Positions 32,424 to 38,113 of a stretch of DNA of 64,000 nt are shown here, piece after piece. The notes beneath the pieces were generated by a model that worked only from the letters and a program-made list of their open reading frames with translations, did not search any database and was not told where the DNA came from. Position 1 is the first letter of the stretch. Every line of letters starts with the position of its first letter. The position numbers and the translations under genes are program-made. The stretch is from NCBI GenBank assembly GCA_964475855.1, contig CAYZAV010000001.1:49060-113059 (forward strand). The letters are read 5' to 3'. Source of the stretch: an uncultured Candidatus Saccharibacteria bacterium. Its GTDB lineage: Bacteria; Patescibacteriota; Minisyncoccia; Minisyncoccales; Staskawiczbacteraceae.

Positions 32424-33917
32424 TCAATATCCAAGAAACCCGGGTTTTAACCATCTTGAGGCATACTTGATCAGGCAAGCGGCAGCTATATAATAGACAG
32501 CCAGCCAAATCAAAGGTACGTGTTCAAAAGGTACCGCCGCCCACGGACCATAAAAAATATCCATAACAACCATAAAATACCGTAACAATATCCAAGCAGG
32601 CATGGAAAAGACTAATCCCAAAAACGAAGAACCCATGCCCACCACGGCCGCCAAAAATCCGAATATCATAATAAAATCAATAATGGGTATTACGAGTAAA
32701 TTAGTAATGGGTGCTACGAGCGACATATTTTTAAAGTAATAAGCAACGACTGGCAGGGTGAAAATTTGAGCTGACAATGTAACCGAAACAATGCCCAGAA
32801 AATAACTAGCCTGATTTTTTTCAAAAAAACTAAAGAGGCGGTCAAAAAACGGTTTCAGGTAAATAATACCCATGGAAGCCAGGAAAGAAAGCTGAAAACC
32901 CACATCATAGCGCAATAAAAACGGGTTACAAAAAAGCATTACCGTTGCCGTCAATACAATCAAGCGCGACGTGGTATTTTGCCTACCCAGTTTTTGTGCC
33001 AACAAAAAAACGGTTGCCATAATCCCAGCTCGTATTCCCGAAGCCGGAAACGCAGCAATGGCAATATAGAGCCAAATAAAAAATACCGACCCATAAAATG
33101 CCTGCGAACGCCAAAGGCCCATGCCCAGTAAAACCACCATTAAAATATTGCTCAAAATGAGCACATTGGATCCCGAAACCGCCGTCAGATGGTTTAGCCC
33201 CGTAGCGCTGAATTTATCTTTCAACTCTTTTGGCATATTAGTGGTCCCGCCCAACATAATGCCTTCGACAATGGCGCTTTCCGGCGGCGGAAATTGCAGG
33301 TAAATGGATTGGCGGAGCGCACGCTTAATAGAAAGTATTTTTGCGTATAACCACTGCCCTGGTGTTGATGGGCTTTCATGCGAAAGCAGTTTGATAGTTG
33401 GAAAATCCATGATCGAATAAATTCCATCTTTCATCAGATAATTTTTGTAATTAAACTCTTCGGTCACTTCTGGCGTTTTCAGTTTTCCGATAAGTTCTAT
33501 GCGGTCAAGGTATTCATATTCCGGATAACGGCCGGCCGTAACCAAGACGACGCTCTTTGTACCATCAACCCGCACACTTAACTTTTGTGATGTTTCCCGG
33601 ATATCGGAAGCATCAATCAATTGTCCGATAAGGGTTAATTTTTCGGGGCTATCGTTGAAACGGCTTACCGTATCCCCCATAACAGCATATTGGGAAATTT
33701 GAAGGCGAGAAATTCCAATCACCAACAACAGTAAACAGAAACCGGTTGTGCGAAGCAACCATGGTTTTGTAAAAAAAGAAGCGGCAATACCTGCCGCCGC
33801 CAAAACTATTATTCCCCAAATAATAACCTCTGGAATAACTACAAACGATTGAAGCGCAACCCCCATCACAAAAGAAATGCAAAAGAAAAAAAGTGATTTT
33901 GAGGGGGTTATCAACAT
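32424..33917 (-). CDS. comEC: ComEC/Rec2-family DNA internalisation channel protein
   Basis: N-terminal DUF4131-like region plus a competence domain (GLNHLTAVSGSNVLIL, polytopic). Confidence 0.8.
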   Translation of the reverse strand: MLITPSKSLFFFCISFVMGVALQSFVVIPEVIIWGIIVLAAAGIAASFFTKPWLLRTTGFCLLLLVIGISRLQISQYAVMGDTVSRFNDSPEKLTLIGQLIDASDIRETSQKLSVRVDGTKSVVLVTAGRYPEYEYLDRIELIGKLKTPEVTEEFNYKNYLMKDGIYSIMDFPTIKLLSHESPSTPGQWLYAKILSIKRALRQSIYLQFPPPESAIVEGIMLGGTTNMPKELKDKFSATGLNHLTAVSGSNVLILSNILMVVLLGMGLWRSQAFYGSVFFIWLYIAIAAFPASGIRAGIMATVFLLAQKLGRQNTTSRLIVLTATVMLFCNPFLLRYDVGFQLSFLASMGIIYLKPFFDRLFSFFEKNQASYFLGIVSVTLSAQIFTLPVVAYYFKNMSLVAPITNLLVIPIIDFIMIFGFLAAVVGMGSSFLGLVFSMPAWILLRYFMVVMDIFYGPWAAVPFEHVPLIWLAVYYIAAACLIKYASRWLKPGFLGY

Positions 33918-34300
33918 TACGAGGCAATTATGGCAGCCCTTTTCTCGCGAATTTCTTGCCGCATAATGTTCAGTTGTTCCGTTATTGCCTGTCGGGCTTC
34001 AGGCGTCAATAATGGGTCAAGTGCAATTTTGTCTTCCAGAATCTGGAATTTAGCAATCATAACATTGACCCGTTTCATATTTTCTTGCTTGCTACTGCTA
34101 TAGGGAACCTGTAAATCCGCCTGTATGTCGTGTATTGTTTCATCAAACACCTTAAGGTCACGCTGAGTTGGTGCATCCGGATCAAAAACTTTCTTAACTC
34201 CACCATCTCCAAAATCCACATCAATATCAGCTTTTATAAGATCATCAGCGCCATCATCCATTATTGGCTCAAAATTATCGTGGCTACTTTTTTCCCCCAT
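33917..34300 (-). CDS. acidic hypothetical protein (127 aa) downstream of ftsZ
   Basis: ORF with 1-nt overlap to comEC. Coiled-coil C-terminus. A possible division-associated protein, but no family recognised. Confidence 0.45.
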   Translation of the reverse strand: MGEKSSHDNFEPIMDDGADDLIKADIDVDFGDGGVKKVFDPDAPTQRDLKVFDETIHDIQADLQVPYSSSKQENMKRVNVMIAKFQILEDKIALDPLLTPEARQAITEQLNIMRQEIREKRAAIIAS

Positions 34301-34316
34301 ATTTTTAAAGAATAAA

Positions 34317-35237
34317 TTATAAATGCGTCGCTATTACCGTTATTTTTATTTCCCCTTTTTTTAACGTATTGTCTTTTACGGCCCCAAAAATAATCTGGGC
34401 TTTCGGGTCAACGTTAGCCGTAATCACCTTGGCTGCTTCCTGGATTTCGTTAAGCGTAATATCGACCCCGGAAGCATTAAATAAAATACCTTTTGACCCT
34501 TTGATGGAAAAATCTAGCAAAGGCGAGTTGATGGCCTGGGTTGCTGCCGCCACAGCGCGCTGCTCGCCAACCGCCTTTCCCGTACCAAACAATGCCCGAC
34601 CGGAATTTTTCATGATAGAAACAACAGAAGCAAAATCAATACTAATGATACCCGGCGATAAAATCAAATCGGTCACGCCCTGCACCGCCTGTTTCAAAGT
34701 GTCATCGCAAATTTCAAAGGCATTGGAAACCGTAGTTTTTTCATCAATCACTTTCAACAGTTTATCGTTGGAAATAACCAGCAGCGAATCCACCCGACTT
34801 TTCAATTCATCAATGGCCTTTTTGGCAATCGTGCTACGCTGTTCACCCTCGAAAGAGAATGGCATAGTCACCGCCGCCACCGTCAAAATGCCTAAATTTT
34901 TAGCAACCTCTGCAATCATGGGAGCCGCGCCACTGCCCGTTCCCCCGCCTAATCCACAGGTAATAAAAACCATATCAGTACCCTTAAGCACCTCTTCCAA
35001 TTCTTTTTTATTTTCTTCGGCCGCCAATTTCCCTTGACTGGCTTCCATACCGGCACCAAGACCTTTTGTCACATTCTTCCCGATCAATATTTTGTGCGGA
35101 ACTTTACAAAAATGTAACGCCTGGGCATCAGTATTTACTGCTATCAAATCCACTCCCTGGACCTCGAATTTGGCAATTCTGGCAACCGTATTGGAGCCTG
35201 ACCCACCCACCCCGATCACTTTTATCTTGGGTAACAT
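34317..35237 (-). CDS. ftsZ: cell division GTPase FtsZ (short, lacks C-terminal tail)
   Basis: GGGTGSG tubulin signature. IKVIGVGGSGSN. T7 loop region. 306 aa. Confidence 0.9.
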   Translation of the reverse strand: MLPKIKVIGVGGSGSNTVARIAKFEVQGVDLIAVNTDAQALHFCKVPHKILIGKNVTKGLGAGMEASQGKLAAEENKKELEEVLKGTDMVFITCGLGGGTGSGAAPMIAEVAKNLGILTVAAVTMPFSFEGEQRSTIAKKAIDELKSRVDSLLVISNDKLLKVIDEKTTVSNAFEICDDTLKQAVQGVTDLILSPGIISIDFASVVSIMKNSGRALFGTGKAVGEQRAVAAATQAINSPLLDFSIKGSKGILFNASGVDITLNEIQEAAKVITANVDPKAQIIFGAVKDNTLKKGEIKITVIATHL

Positions 35238-35247
35238 GGCTTATTAA

Positions 35248-35279
35248 CGAATTTACGAATATATTTCGAATTTACGAAT
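35248..35279. repeat. left terminal inverted repeat: CGAATTTACGAAT-atattt-CGAATTTACGAAT
   Basis: Perfect reverse complement of the 13-bp units at 36313..36344. Overlaps the last codons and stop of the GxxExxY gene. Lies 10 nt from the ftsZ start codon. Confidence 0.6.
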
Positions 35280-35667
35280 CAAAGTTTACTATCCTTTTAT
35301 ATTTAAGTTCATGCTGGCCAAAGTTCGCCAAAATTCCCAATTTAAGATTGTATGTTTTCAAATAAGTCATAACCTGCTCAATATTGCTTCTTGAAAACCT
35401 ATCTCCCTTTTTAATTTCCAGCACTACCTTTCCATCTACCAAGAAATCTAAAAAATAACTTCCTACGTTTTTATTTTCAAACATCAGTGGAGTATAAACC
35501 TGCTCCTTAAACACCAAACCATGTTTTTGAAATCCGACAGACAATGCTCTTTGGTATACCTTTTCATGGTGTCCTGACCCAATTTGATTATGCACTTCAA
35601 AAAGAATTCCCACAATCCGATAACTTAATTCAGGATATACTAAATCGCTACGCTTTGGTAGTTGCAT
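35272..35667 (-). CDS. GxxExxY-family protein (PD-(D/E)xK nuclease superfamily, TIGR04256-like)
   Basis: YPELSYRIVGILFEVHNQIGSGHHEKVYQRAL contains the G-x-x-E-x-x-Y signature (GHHEKVY). Start taken at MQLPKRS. Confidence 0.7.
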   Translation of the reverse strand: MQLPKRSDLVYPELSYRIVGILFEVHNQIGSGHHEKVYQRALSVGFQKHGLVFKEQVYTPLMFENKNVGSYFLDFLVDGKVVLEIKKGDRFSRSNIEQVMTYLKTYNLKLGILANFGQHELKYKRIVNFDS

Positions 35668-35669
35668 AA

Positions 35670-36275
35670 CTAAATTACATCTATTTTTTCGCCTAAAAAC
35701 TCTACTGCGCACCCATCATTCAATCTAATAACTCCATGACTATGTTTCTCTTCCCATGCATCTATAATTACTCTTTCTTTCCTTTGGTAGTGTGGCGTTA
35801 TTACCTTATCAATAAAATTTAATCCGGTGGTATCTTTTAAGTTGACATCATTCGAGTCAAATGATTCTGCAATAGAAATATCAGGACACGCAATAATGCT
35901 GCCGGCACTGACACCAACATACACCTTCCCGTTATTTACAAAATCAATAATTTTTTTGTCAAAACCAGTTTTCCTGACCTCACTCATCAAGTAAAATGTA
36001 TTGCCTCCGCAAACATATATGGCATCGTAATCAGCAATATCGGCATCTTCCAACTTACCAACCCATACAATATTTTCTCTTGGTATTCCTAAATCAATTA
36101 ATTCTTTCTCTGATACATAAACATACGACATTTCATGTTCTGTTTGCGATGCGGTAGGCACAAAGAGAACTCTGATCATCTCTGGATTTTTGCCAACTAA
36201 TTCTAAAAACCGCTTTCCAATATTGGGGCTAGCGAATCCATTTGATGTTAAAAGCAGTTTTTTCATGATTTCCAT
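35670..36275 (-). CDS. peptidase S51 (peptidase E / cyanophycinase-like) family protein
   Basis: VGVSAGSIIA serine-nucleophile motif and class I glutamine amidotransferase-like fold. 201 aa. Confidence 0.65.
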   Translation of the reverse strand: MEIMKKLLLTSNGFASPNIGKRFLELVGKNPEMIRVLFVPTASQTEHEMSYVYVSEKELIDLGIPRENIVWVGKLEDADIADYDAIYVCGGNTFYLMSEVRKTGFDKKIIDFVNNGKVYVGVSAGSIIACPDISIAESFDSNDVNLKDTTGLNFIDKVITPHYQRKERVIIDAWEEKHSHGVIRLNDGCAVEFLGEKIDVI

Positions 36276-36312
36276 TTTACCAAAAAACCGTCATTCAAAC
36301 GATTCTTTACAT

Positions 36313-36344
36313 ATTCGTAAATTCGCACCATATTCGTAAATTCG
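36313..36344. repeat. right terminal inverted repeat: ATTCGTAAATTCG-caccat-ATTCGTAAATTCG
   Basis: See the left repeat. Lies 5 nt after the ftsA stop codon. Confidence 0.6.
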
Positions 36345-36348
36345 TTGA

Positions 36349-37590
36349 TTACGGGATAAACACCCTGAACATTTTTCTCATTTTAAGCCCCCAACCTTTT
36401 AAAAAACCAAATAGATTTGCCATTGCGTTTTCCTGGCCTTCATCTATCGTGCTGGTTGCCCCAATAATAAGTCCGGCAACTGTGGCCAGCGAAGGATCCG
36501 CCTCAATGCCCCCAATGCCTTTTGGTACGCCGATTTCGCAGGGCAGGCCCAGTACTTGTTTGGCCAATTCTTTTATCCGTGGCATTTTGGCGCCGCCACC
36601 AGTCAGCATTACGCCGCCGGGCAATAATTCTTGCCTGCCGATTTTTTTGAGCTCTTTTTGCATCAAGTCCAAAATCTCCACCACTCGCGGTTCAATAATA
36701 TCCACCAATTGTTTTTTGGTAAATACCAGCGAATGTGACGTGTCAAACATTTCTATTTTTTTGCGCGCCTGATCTTTTTTTTCTTTATCTGTTTTGGCAA
36801 ACAGGCACGTGCCATGCTGTTTTTTAATATCTTCGGCCGTGACCACATCGGTTTTTAAACCAATGGCAATGTCGTTGGTAATATTGGCCGAACCAATAGG
36901 AAAAATGGCTAAGTGTATCAAATCCCCCTCTTCAAAAACTGAAAGACTAGTGGTAGCGTAGCCAATATCAATCACTGCCGCGCCGATTTCTTTTTGTTGA
37001 CGGGTCAGCACCGCCTCAGCTGCAGCCAAAGGTGAGGGCACAATATCATCAATCTGCACTTTTGCGTTCAAAACCGCCTGACTTAAATTGGTAAAATATT
37101 GCTGGAAATAACAGAGTAACACTACTTTAGCTTCTAGGCGTACTCCGGTCAGCCCGAGCGGCTGTTTGATGCCCCGCTGCTCATCAATAATGAATTCTCG
37201 GGGGAATACATCTAAAATTTCTTCGTTGGAAGAGTGACTGATGGCACGCGTGGCTGATAACACCCGGTCAATATCTTCTTCTGAAATAATATGATCAGCG
37301 CGAGAAACAGAAATCAACCCATCGGAAGGCGTGGTATATAAATGACTGCCACCAATGTTCACAAAGACGGAGTGAATGCTCTTACCACTTTCCCGCTCTA
37401 CACCGGAAAGAAGCATCTGGATGTTTTTTGCCGTTTCGTCAATATTGGCAACCACACCTCGCCTTAAACCAAATGACGGGATTTGGGCGTACGACAAAAC
37501 GTCCCATTGTTCGCCATTTTTTTGGGCCACCAACACCTTGATAGTGCTGGTCCCGATATCCAACCCCGTAACGATTTGATTTCTGGACAT
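36349..37590 (-). CDS. ftsA: cell division protein FtsA (actin-like ATPase)
   Basis: GLDIGTSTIKVLV phosphate-1. DIGYATTSLSVF, LTGGGAKMPRIKELA. 413 aa. Confidence 0.9.
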   Translation of the reverse strand: MSRNQIVTGLDIGTSTIKVLVAQKNGEQWDVLSYAQIPSFGLRRGVVANIDETAKNIQMLLSGVERESGKSIHSVFVNIGGSHLYTTPSDGLISVSRADHIISEEDIDRVLSATRAISHSSNEEILDVFPREFIIDEQRGIKQPLGLTGVRLEAKVVLLCYFQQYFTNLSQAVLNAKVQIDDIVPSPLAAAEAVLTRQQKEIGAAVIDIGYATTSLSVFEEGDLIHLAIFPIGSANITNDIAIGLKTDVVTAEDIKKQHGTCLFAKTDKEKKDQARKKIEMFDTSHSLVFTKKQLVDIIEPRVVEILDLMQKELKKIGRQELLPGGVMLTGGGAKMPRIKELAKQVLGLPCEIGVPKGIGGIEADPSLATVAGLIIGATSTIDEGQENAMANLFGFLKGWGLKMRKMFRVFIP

Positions 37591-37615
37591 TATGACTAAT
37601 TTAAAATTTACAATT

Positions 37616-38026
37616 TCAAATTTTCAAAAAGTAATACTCCTGCTTTCCAAACATCCGATCCTCTTCTTCTTTTGAAACTTCGTGGTCATACCCCAAATTA
37701 TGCAACAGGCCGTGGATCAATGACCTTGCCAATTCTTTCTTTAGCGACAGCGGACTTGAGGCCGTTTTTTCTTTTATGTACGCGGGACAAATAATCACTT
37801 CACAGCACTCATCTTTAAACTCGGAAACTTTGGCAAAGCTTAATACATCTGTCGACTTGTCCTTGTTTCGATATTTTCTATTGAGCTTTTGGATTTCTTC
37901 GGGCGTAACAAAAGCGATAGAGACGTTTTCCCTTTCTTTATTTTCGCCTTTTAACACTTTTTTTGCAACCCCGGTAAAAAAGGCTTTATCCACAACGAAT
38001 TTGGTAAGATTATTTATTTCAATCAT
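37616..38026 (-). CDS. ybeY: rRNA maturation endoribonuclease YbeY
   Basis: HGLLHNLGYDH metal-binding motif. 136 aa. Confidence 0.85.
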   Translation of the reverse strand: MIEINNLTKFVVDKAFFTGVAKKVLKGENKERENVSIAFVTPEEIQKLNRKYRNKDKSTDVLSFAKVSEFKDECCEVIICPAYIKEKTASSPLSLKKELARSLIHGLLHNLGYDHEVSKEEEDRMFGKQEYYFLKI

Positions 38027-38071
38027 TGGTTTTAATCAGTCATTTTACCTCATATTTATTTTTTCTCAAAA

Positions 38072-38104
38072 TAAAAAACCGCCTCCTGTAATGCGGAAGC
38101 GGTT
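38072..38104 (-). terminator. rho-independent terminator
   Basis: Minus strand: CCGCTTCC-gcattaca-GGAGGCGG followed by TTTTTTATTTT. Downstream of the 38114..38794 gene. Confidence 0.6.
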
Positions 38105-38113
38105 TTTTACCAT

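Follow-up and report, generated by a model that had tools for sequence, protein, structure and literature searches.

A very probable insertion of a GxxExxY nuclease gene cassette with inverted repeat arms between ftsA and ftsZ of a Patescibacteria genome

Intervening sequences (IVSs) of 23S rRNA that bear an open reading frame (ORF) are selfish inserts of ~430 nt, found in Leptospira and Coxiella, whose ORF encodes an S23p protein with a four-helix bundle. The Coxiella IVS is 428 nt long and is closed by a 28-bp terminal stem; its ORF lies in the loop, tandem heptamers precede the ATG, and RNase III excises the insert (PMC4990558). These IVSs appear to be the closest known analogue of the element described here, which separates ftsA from ftsZ in a 64-kb stretch of DNA from an uncultured Candidatus Saccharibacteria bacterium (contig CAYZAV010000001.1, positions 49,060 to 113,059; the whole stretch analysed, hereafter "the window"). 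Between two inverted repeat arms, this cassette holds a gene for a GxxExxY-family PD-(D/E)XK nuclease and a gene for a peptidase S51-like protein. IVS and cassette are of similar size (460 nt for the one-gene cassette of the related contig L106), carry an ORF of ~120-130 residues in the loop and end in an inverted-repeat stem of ~28-31 bp. Both also display tandem direct repeats of 7-8 nt right before the ORF start, lie within a host transcript and lack a transposase. They differ in their location, helix 25 or 45 of 23S rRNA for the IVS and the spacer between cistrons of a protein-coding operon for the cassette, and in their protein, a four-helix bundle as opposed to a PD-(D/E)XK nuclease. The cassette can moreover add cargo, and excision by RNase III, demonstrated for the rRNA IVS, is only presumed for it.

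Other described systems share part of this architecture. Homing endonuclease genes can be free-standing, and I-Ssp6803I is a homing endonuclease of the PD-(D/E)XK type. The cassette resembles them as a small nuclease gene with presence/absence alleles at a precise site, tolerated in essential operons, and its ORF seems to split a palindrome that is intact in gene-less copies. It differs from them in targeting many unrelated junctions and in carrying its own repeat arms, and the fold search with its protein singled out no homing enzyme. Miniature inverted-repeat transposable elements (MITEs), repetitive extragenic palindromes (REP) and bacterial interspersed mosaic elements (BIME) are likewise short palindromes spread over operon spacers in several copies per genome and forming stable hairpins. 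In contrast to these, the full-length partner of the cassette is a PD-(D/E)XK protein and not a DDE or RAYT (HUH) transposase; its arms are made of four repeated boxes, a single heptamer recurs across phyla, and there is no clear target-site duplication. Integron gene cassettes are promoter-less single-ORF units as well, which depend on a host promoter upstream and may carry accessory enzymes. They possess, however, a single attC at the 3' side instead of arms on both sides of the ORF, and they are arrayed, whereas GxxExxY copies are dispersed in housekeeping operons; looking for the integrase/attI system, no integrase was found among the matches listed for the element flanks or the window. 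Each of these systems, rRNA IVSs included, has at least one defining feature that the cassette lacks. The cassette apparently belongs to a widespread and previously undescribed family: an incomplete literature search retrieved no description of the arms, the cassette or the function of GxxExxY, and one chance primer match to the repeat.

The repeat is a 13-mer, and the four exact copies reported by the initial annotation of the window are confirmed, paired two by two and inverted. Positions 35248-35279 read CGAATTTACGAAT-atattt-CGAATTTACGAAT and positions 36313-36344 read ATTCGTAAATTCG-caccat-ATTCGTAAATTCG. Beyond these four, the 64-kb window contains no exact copy of the 13-mer and, with up to one mismatch allowed, no additional ATTCGnnnATTCG; an overlapping public contig (the 21-kb locus L001) gives the same four exact matches against 0.04 expected. 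The 13-mer is divisible into two TACGAAT-type boxes spaced by 8 nt. The complete inverted repeat is 37 nt long and 89% complementary (35243-35279 with 36313-36349), and the element extends from 35244 to 36348, the arms being the ends of the inserted unit, as had been proposed. Read along the gene strand, with slashes at the element limits, the 5' part is ftsA-TAA / TCAA-CGAATTTACGAAT-atggtg-CGAATTTACGAAT-ATG TAA, followed by the S51 and GxxExxY genes, and the 3' part is GxxExxY GAT TCG TAA-ATTCG-aaatat-ATTCGTAAATTCG-TTAA / TAAGCC-ATG-ftsZ. The GxxExxY ATG lies 2 nt past the S51 stop, and its final codons GAT TCG TAA fall within the ftsZ-side arm, the stop codon being at 35272-35274. The GC content is 0.35 in the cassette vs 0.43-0.46 in ftsA and ftsZ.

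The names carried by FtsA homologues point to a Staskawiczbacteria-like member of the Patescibacteria as the source of the window. The junction was compared in relatives, namely contigs with an FtsA 75-82% identical to that of the window. It is empty in L107 (ftsA-TAA, 15 nt, ftsZ ATG), in L108 (TAA-ATACT-ATG), in L202 (TGA, 11 nt, ATG) and in contigs carrying the FtsA P0008 (a 31-nt gap, from gene coordinates only). Judging from these sequences, the window segment is a derived insertion between ancestrally adjacent ftsA and ftsZ, in line with the initial annotation. The identical junction of L106 harbors a GxxExxY gene alone, without S51, between degenerate arms of the window type. It reads TGA / TCAACGAATcaaCGAATttgttgCGAATTTACGAAT-ATG...GAT TCG TAA ATTCGtaaaaaATCCGTAAATTCGCTGA / TAACTAT-ATG, so that the element opens with TGA / TCAACGAAT..CGAAT ATG and closes with TAA ATTCG..CTGA / TAACTAT ATG. 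The ATG adjoining the upstream arm starts GxxExxY in such one-gene cassettes; in the window, it is directly followed by the stop TAA. By FtsA identity, L106 is nearest to the empty L107 (87.7%, vs 82.1% to the window), and the GxxExxY proteins of L106 and the window are only 70% identical; the junction has therefore been hit twice, or else there were at least two precise losses.

An ancestral arrangement, with both genes vertically inherited in the division operon and lost in relatives, would fit the presence of GxxExxY at the L106 junction. It would, however, need at least two exact losses, since L106 groups with the empty L107, and it sits poorly with the clean state of all four empty junctions, the GC dip of the cassette, the lack of S51 in L106 and the occurrence of the same cassette type at ~90 other kinds of junction. 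The two genes without repeats were not encountered between ftsA and ftsZ in these relatives, whose junctions are empty or, in L106, occupied by GxxExxY and arms. Vertical inheritance is thus very improbable. The segment is, with high confidence, a derived insertion of a member of a family of arm-bracketed GxxExxY cassettes. It is, on balance, probable that 35244-36348 is a copy of a small selfish cassette family in which a gene of ~130 codons for a GxxExxY nuclease is set between two inverted arms.

Table 1. Features of the ftsA-ftsZ region, in gene-strand order, with their positions in the window.
Feature	Positions	Strand	Evidence and remarks
ftsA, upstream host gene	36349..37590	-	TIGR01174 4.5e-95; TAA stop 36349-36351 adjoins the element end
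Upstream (5') arm	36313..36348	-	TCAA-CGAATTTACGAAT-atggtg-CGAATTTACGAAT; four (T)ACGAAT-type boxes, 8/11/8-nt spacing
Spacer after the arm	36276..36312	-	begins with ATG TAA, then 31 nt to the S51 start
Peptidase S51 / class-I glutamine-amidotransferase-like gene, apparent passenger	35670..36275	-	PF03575 3.8e-38; GVSAGS motif
GxxExxY PD-(D/E)XK nuclease gene, 131 aa	35272..35667	-	TIGR04256 2.1e-33; PF13366 5.6e-32
Downstream (3') arm	35244..35279	-	ATTCGTAAATTCG-aaatat-ATTCGTAAATTCG-TTAA; ends 6 nt before the ftsZ ATG
ftsZ, downstream host gene, 306 aa	34317..35237	-	TIGR00065 3.2e-107

The arms accompany GxxExxY at many other loci. Metagenome contigs were scanned with a GxxExxY protein alignment, yielding 80 loci on Patescibacteria contigs. 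At least two CGAAT boxes occur within 130 nt upstream of the gene in 49 of the 80, and at least two ATTCG boxes downstream in 53; boxes in the opposite orientation average ~0.25 per locus. Most of the remaining loci display variant boxes that match across the two sides (CTAAT/ATTAG, CGAAA/TTTCG, CAAAT/ATTTG). Scored as inverted repeats, the two arms of a locus reach a median of 47.5, against 37 when one arm comes from a different locus; a direct-repeat control reaches 21. Each arm is ~36-40 nt long and carries four TACGAAT-type boxes with an 8/11/8-nt spacing, a layout shared by the upstream arm of the window. Two classes of outer ends are found, ATCAACGAAT...ATTCGTTGAT, to which the window belongs, and nnnTACGAAT...ATTCGTAnnn. 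In most elements, the upstream arm ends at most 2 nt from the ATG (...TACGAAT-ATG), and the first downstream box provides the stop codon (GAT TCG TAA), hence the common C-terminus ...NFDS. Annotated GxxExxY proteins with the tail ...NSYIRKY (P0170, P0177, P0188, P0204, P0237) correspond to a downstream arm, AAT TCG TAT ATT CGT AAA, that has been read through. Conversely, when inner segments of 385-450 nt bracketed by arms are collected, nearly all encode GxxExxY (43 matches to its hidden Markov model, HMM).

The unit of the cassette is accordingly the GxxExxY gene with its arms, as in L106, and not the two genes that the initial annotation had grouped. The S51 gene is best viewed as cargo lodged between the upstream arm and the nuclease gene. 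Its nearest homologues (72-66% identical) reside in unrelated small-gene arrays, without arms or GxxExxY, which makes S51 a passenger; the idea of S51 as a recurrent cassette partner was ruled out on the same grounds. Other cargo occupies this slot elsewhere, a GDSL hydrolase in L136 and a 163-residue protein in L139 and L156, and L160 has a 75-residue ORF past GxxExxY. The S51 protein counts 201 residues from its first ATG (198 in public gene calls) and aligns with positions 1-205 of the 206 of the PF03575 profile. Its S51 fold is thereby upheld by HMMs, as is the GxxExxY assignment, whereas the proposed kinship with peptidase E or cyanophycinase is not: the scores stay below the equivalog cut-offs (64.4 bits vs 156 for PepE, 33.2 vs 126.6 for cyanophycinase).

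Landing in core operons, which had seemed unusual from the window alone, is the rule for GxxExxY cassettes. Among 63 distinct cassettes, the neighbouring gene is co-directional in 50 of 56 cases upstream and 52 of 57 downstream, and the median gaps to the neighbours are 42 and 38 nt, i.e., one arm length. The 100 neighbour proteins belong to 93 Pfam families, with rpsG-fusA recurring five times and pilB-pilC four times; a pheS-pheT junction is occupied in L023, and spacers between ribosomal-protein genes are hit likewise. These positions bear on a regulatory alternative, already raised in the initial annotation, in which the tandem 13-mers would bind a regulator of ftsZ and of the cassette genes. 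The repeats do precede the ATG of ftsZ by 6-10 nt and that of S51 by 37 nt, and arms are found just upstream of dnaJ, groEL, fusA, rpsB and rplK in other Patescibacteria. The sites are absent, however, before ftsZ in the four relatives, the two sets point in opposite directions with respect to the genes that they precede, and arms follow GxxExxY to dozens of unrelated loci. Where arms lie upstream of the other genes, they terminate palindromes that occupy the entire spacer and leave no space for a promoter ahead of the ATG. In the cassette itself, no promoter- or terminator-like signal rises above chance (3 promoters found vs 5.3 expected). An operator role is extremely unlikely.

Searches for known RNA families in this region were negative, with no Rfam match over 34000-38000 in evalue mode, and no family for the arms of 12 repeat loci in gathering mode. 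A strict regular expression for generic arms gives no match in the 64-kb window, the window's own arms included, one box being GCGAAT. An invertible segment was considered and rejected: there is no recombinase, and the orientation is identical in every contig extending past ftsA. The FtsA protein of the window is present on 8 public contigs.

Besides full cassettes, the arms form gene-less palindromes. The initial annotation had called for a search for further 13-mer pairs in other genomes, and such pairs are indeed found: across GTDB species genomes of many phyla, 101 stretches contain ATTCGTAAATTCG-N3-9-ATTCGTAAATTCG. A rule by which a tandem 13-mer pair announces a nearby GxxExxY was discarded, most of the 101 matches being gene-less palindromes or 8-bp arrays; only L069 and L023 have a neighbouring GxxExxY that passes the HMM, and a truncated gene was identified by eye in L097. 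The usual form in Patescibacteria is a palindrome of 60-100 nt in which a loop of 0-30 nt joins the upstream to the downstream arm. Of six solo palindromes tested, five form predicted hairpins (z-scores between -4.6 and -7.9). Solo palindromes are present in several copies per genome and fill co-directional spacers such as dnaK-dnaJ, groES-groEL, nusG-rplK and that upstream of rpsB (genes identified by eye). In one Patescibacteria metagenome-assembled genome (MAG; L018, reverse strand, 1-2150), solo arms or palindromes stand upstream of rplP and occupy three of the four spacers among rplP, rpmC, rpsQ, rplN and rplX, with none found in rpmC-rpsQ. When the loop is nil, the centre is the perfect palindrome TACGAAT-ATTCGTA, the very position of the ORF in full cassettes. 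Extra arms, complete or partial, are also seen beside full cassettes in L113 (~2370-2500), L140, L175, L178 and L023 (4280-4400); these nested or tandem palindromes suggest that new insertions have repeatedly landed in or next to arms already present.

In Acidobacteriota, Chloroflexota and Bacteroidota, the heptamer takes the form of 8-bp tandem arrays, (ATTCGTAA)n, with 3-9 units (L013, L014, L054, L081, L087, L089 and others). An inverted array of CGAAT or CGGAT boxes is often nearby, and these pairs lie in operon spacers, as exemplified by rpsG-fusA in L081. The ~4 kb around the heptamer arrays of these three phyla revealed no GxxExxY gene.

The GxxExxY protein of the window scores 115.1 bits against TIGR04256 (cut-off 35) and 111 bits against PF13366 (cut-off 22). 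It possesses the GxxExxY motif and the D...ExK residues of PD-(D/E)XK enzymes; D74, E84 and K86, as well as the motif glutamate E35, are invariant in the alignment. Its AlphaFold model (predicted local distance difference test score, pLDDT, of 92) displays a restriction-endonuclease-like fold. The fold search returned DNA-nuclease-like structures, Cas4, restriction enzymes and Hjc, with I-Bth0305I only at E 0.065, and a sequence search of the PDB with GxxExxY gave no match. The PF13366 family is large: clustered at 50% identity, it counts 17,537 representatives at E <= 1e-3. Many members are ~265 residues long and contain two full domains (P0374, P0375, P0383 and others), a hint at a dimeric enzyme. 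These two-domain members could represent dimers fused into one chain, or else two adjacent cassettes spanned by one gene call.

A mechanism in which an RNA stem shelters the host operon and the nuclease drives movement can be proposed tentatively, as plausible although short of probable. In a first step, the cassette, presumably devoid of a promoter of its own, would be transcribed along with the host operon. The arms would then pair in the transcript as a stem of ~31 bp with the insert looped out, returning the ftsA stop and the ftsZ start to within a few nucleotides of each other. RNase III would be likely to cleave such a stem, as in 23S rRNA IVSs with an ORF, and either the looping-out or the cleavage would limit polar damage to the operon. 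Lastly, the resident nuclease would catalyse movement by acting on the arms or on the centre of the palindrome. The most economical version of this last step is homing-like: the ORF would split the presumed recognition site TACGAAT-ATTCGTA, the arms, with ~40 nt on each side, would supply homology for repair, and the nuclease might be dimeric. A broader proposal, that GxxExxY cassettes form a new class of autonomous mobile elements in which the gene of a dimeric nuclease homes into the centres of heptamer-repeat palindromes, which themselves spread over operon spacers and serve in the mRNA as self-insulating stems processed by RNase III, a kind of mRNA IVS, is doubtful.

The pairing of the arms was examined by covariation in 30 aligned mini-elements, each made of an upstream arm, a GAAA linker and a downstream arm. 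Of the 27 pairs predicted by RNAalifold, 12 show compensatory changes. Compensatory cells number 73 vs 21 in shuffled pairings, and 94.8% of the cells are paired vs 84.2%, a percentage biased by the pre-selection of the elements on their inverted-repeat score; none of the 500 shuffles reaches as high, and slid controls all have <44% of cells paired. The four outermost pairs, beyond the boxes, make use of AU, UA, CG and GC. From these alignments, the two arms of one element appear to co-vary and to remain complementary. For a 1141-nt transcript segment of the window, both the minimum free energy and the centroid folds pair the arms across 1 kb, by helices of 18 and 13 bp.

These pairs also bear on a MITE-like reading, in which the cassette is a non-autonomous terminal inverted repeat element whose arms bind an unlinked transposase, as do the ends of Tn7, Mu or IS21, and GxxExxY and S51 are mere cargo. 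Gene-less solo arms are numerous, with several per genome, and each end has several direct sub-repeats, like arrays of transposase-binding sites. Some copies are moreover flanked by TAA/TAA or TTA/TTA, the former in the window, and matches between the 3-nt flanks average 1.43 vs 1.27±0.05 when shuffled; this weak signal leaves some room for transposition. A perfect 3-nt duplication is found, however, in only 7 of 47 elements, and the outermost flanks are inverted, not direct, which favours a stem over a target duplication. The outermost paired bases vary and co-vary, with no conserved transposase tip, and the box sequences differ among elements yet remain complementary. The resident ORF is nearly always GxxExxY, and its start and stop codons abut or fall within the arms: full-length copies encode only this protein, with or without small cargo, and no cognate transposase. 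The initial annotation was correct that transposase and integrase genes are missing from the cassette, and there is no transposase either among the matches listed for the window or the element flanks. An unlinked transposase is therefore improbable. Of the MITE-like or site-specific cassette first envisaged, the mobile cassette stands; its unit and the assignment of its cargo do not.

Several observations weigh against the mechanism built on an RNA stem and a nuclease. Sense-type G-U pairs number 16 vs 10 antisense-type A-C pairs, an excess that is not significant, and pairing in RNA is thus inseparable from pairing or symmetry at the DNA level; the pre-selection of the elements mentioned above is another caveat. 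Four repeated boxes per arm are more than a plain stem calls for, which makes a protein that reads the boxes likely. The empty ftsA-ftsZ sites possess no palindrome, so the first arrival here is not accounted for by homing into a palindrome already in place, and the arms alone, or the arms with the gene, must reach new sites too. There is no second copy of the element within the window. To our knowledge, no GxxExxY protein has a known activity. The family is listed as "unknown" in a survey of PD-(D/E)XK proteins (PMC3424549).

A further point of this kind is that evidence from outside Patescibacteria comes solely from seven plasmid-borne GxxExxY genes, three or four of which have inverted arms, one direct repeats and two an ambiguous pattern. 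The five with annotated neighbours are sandwiched co-directionally, as in fabD-fabG, radA-FAD protein and ade-manC. Two Bacteroidota copies, at the radA-FAD protein and ade-manC junctions (L193, 1-2330, and L192, 1-2336), are framed by inverted arrays of CACAGAGGA / TCCTCTGTG, which would represent the cassette architecture with a lineage-specific box sequence. A Treponema copy has one inverted box, a Gemmatirosa copy adjoins a ACGCGGAT palindrome, and the copy on a Fusobacteria plasmid (L195, ~900-1460) is flanked not by inverted arms but by a direct repeat of 22 bp, CAGATTTAATCCGTGTACCTAT.

Part of these observations would suit a purely DNA-level function, in which the arms are recognition or homology sites of the nuclease, or a cruciform or hairpin of single-stranded DNA, and the RNA stem is an irrelevant by-product. 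The fold, close to DNA nucleases such as Cas4, restriction enzymes and Hjc, the ORF that splits the palindrome centre and the lack of a sense-strand G-U excess all agree with it. It leaves aside, however, the strong co-direction with flanking genes and the exact filling of the gap from stop to start, which are expected if the host transcript matters. In addition, the stem extends into the nucleotides that adjoin the host stop and start codons, and the rRNA IVS, if the analogy holds, is processed as RNA. A function confined to DNA appears unlikely.

Other variable features surround this locus. The FtsZ of the window has only 306 residues and stops after the globular core, without a C-terminal linker or tail. 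An acidic ORF of 127 residues follows 16 nt downstream of ftsZ (33917-35237 for the two genes together), with no Pfam match in public gene calls, and the ORFs of relatives at this position are small and unrelated (83-202 residues). Between the UPF0259 gene and ybeY, L106 (1965-3516) and L107 (2014-3559) possess an RVT_1 reverse transcriptase gene, at a place corresponding to ~38030-38110 of the window; in L107, a bAvd gene accompanies it. The insert of both relatives resembles a diversity-generating retroelement. It is absent from the window and from L108, and makes a second presence/absence polymorphism in the neighbourhood of ftsA.

With these cassettes, GxxExxY (PF13366), a large family of unknown function, gains a genomic identity as the resident gene of a repeat-armed cassette. 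The cassette is marked by where it inserts, between the cistrons of essential operons, by the clean state of its empty sites and by cargo that may or may not be present. On the practical side, the arms and solo palindromes cause annotation errors, with ORF tails that are read through the repeats, and probably breaks in MAG assemblies. If the mechanism holds, it would explain how a selfish element survives in the ftsA-ftsZ, rpsG-fusA and ribosomal-protein operons of minimal Patescibacteria genomes, and would indicate a pair formed by a sequence-specific nuclease and its palindrome. It would also link the cassettes to the 23S rRNA IVSs, whose origin has been unclear for ~30 years. Should GxxExxY cassettes prove to be a new class of elements, the same logic would explain both the ORF-bearing 23S rRNA IVSs and the (ATTCGTAA)n palindromes, from Acidobacteriota to Patescibacteria.

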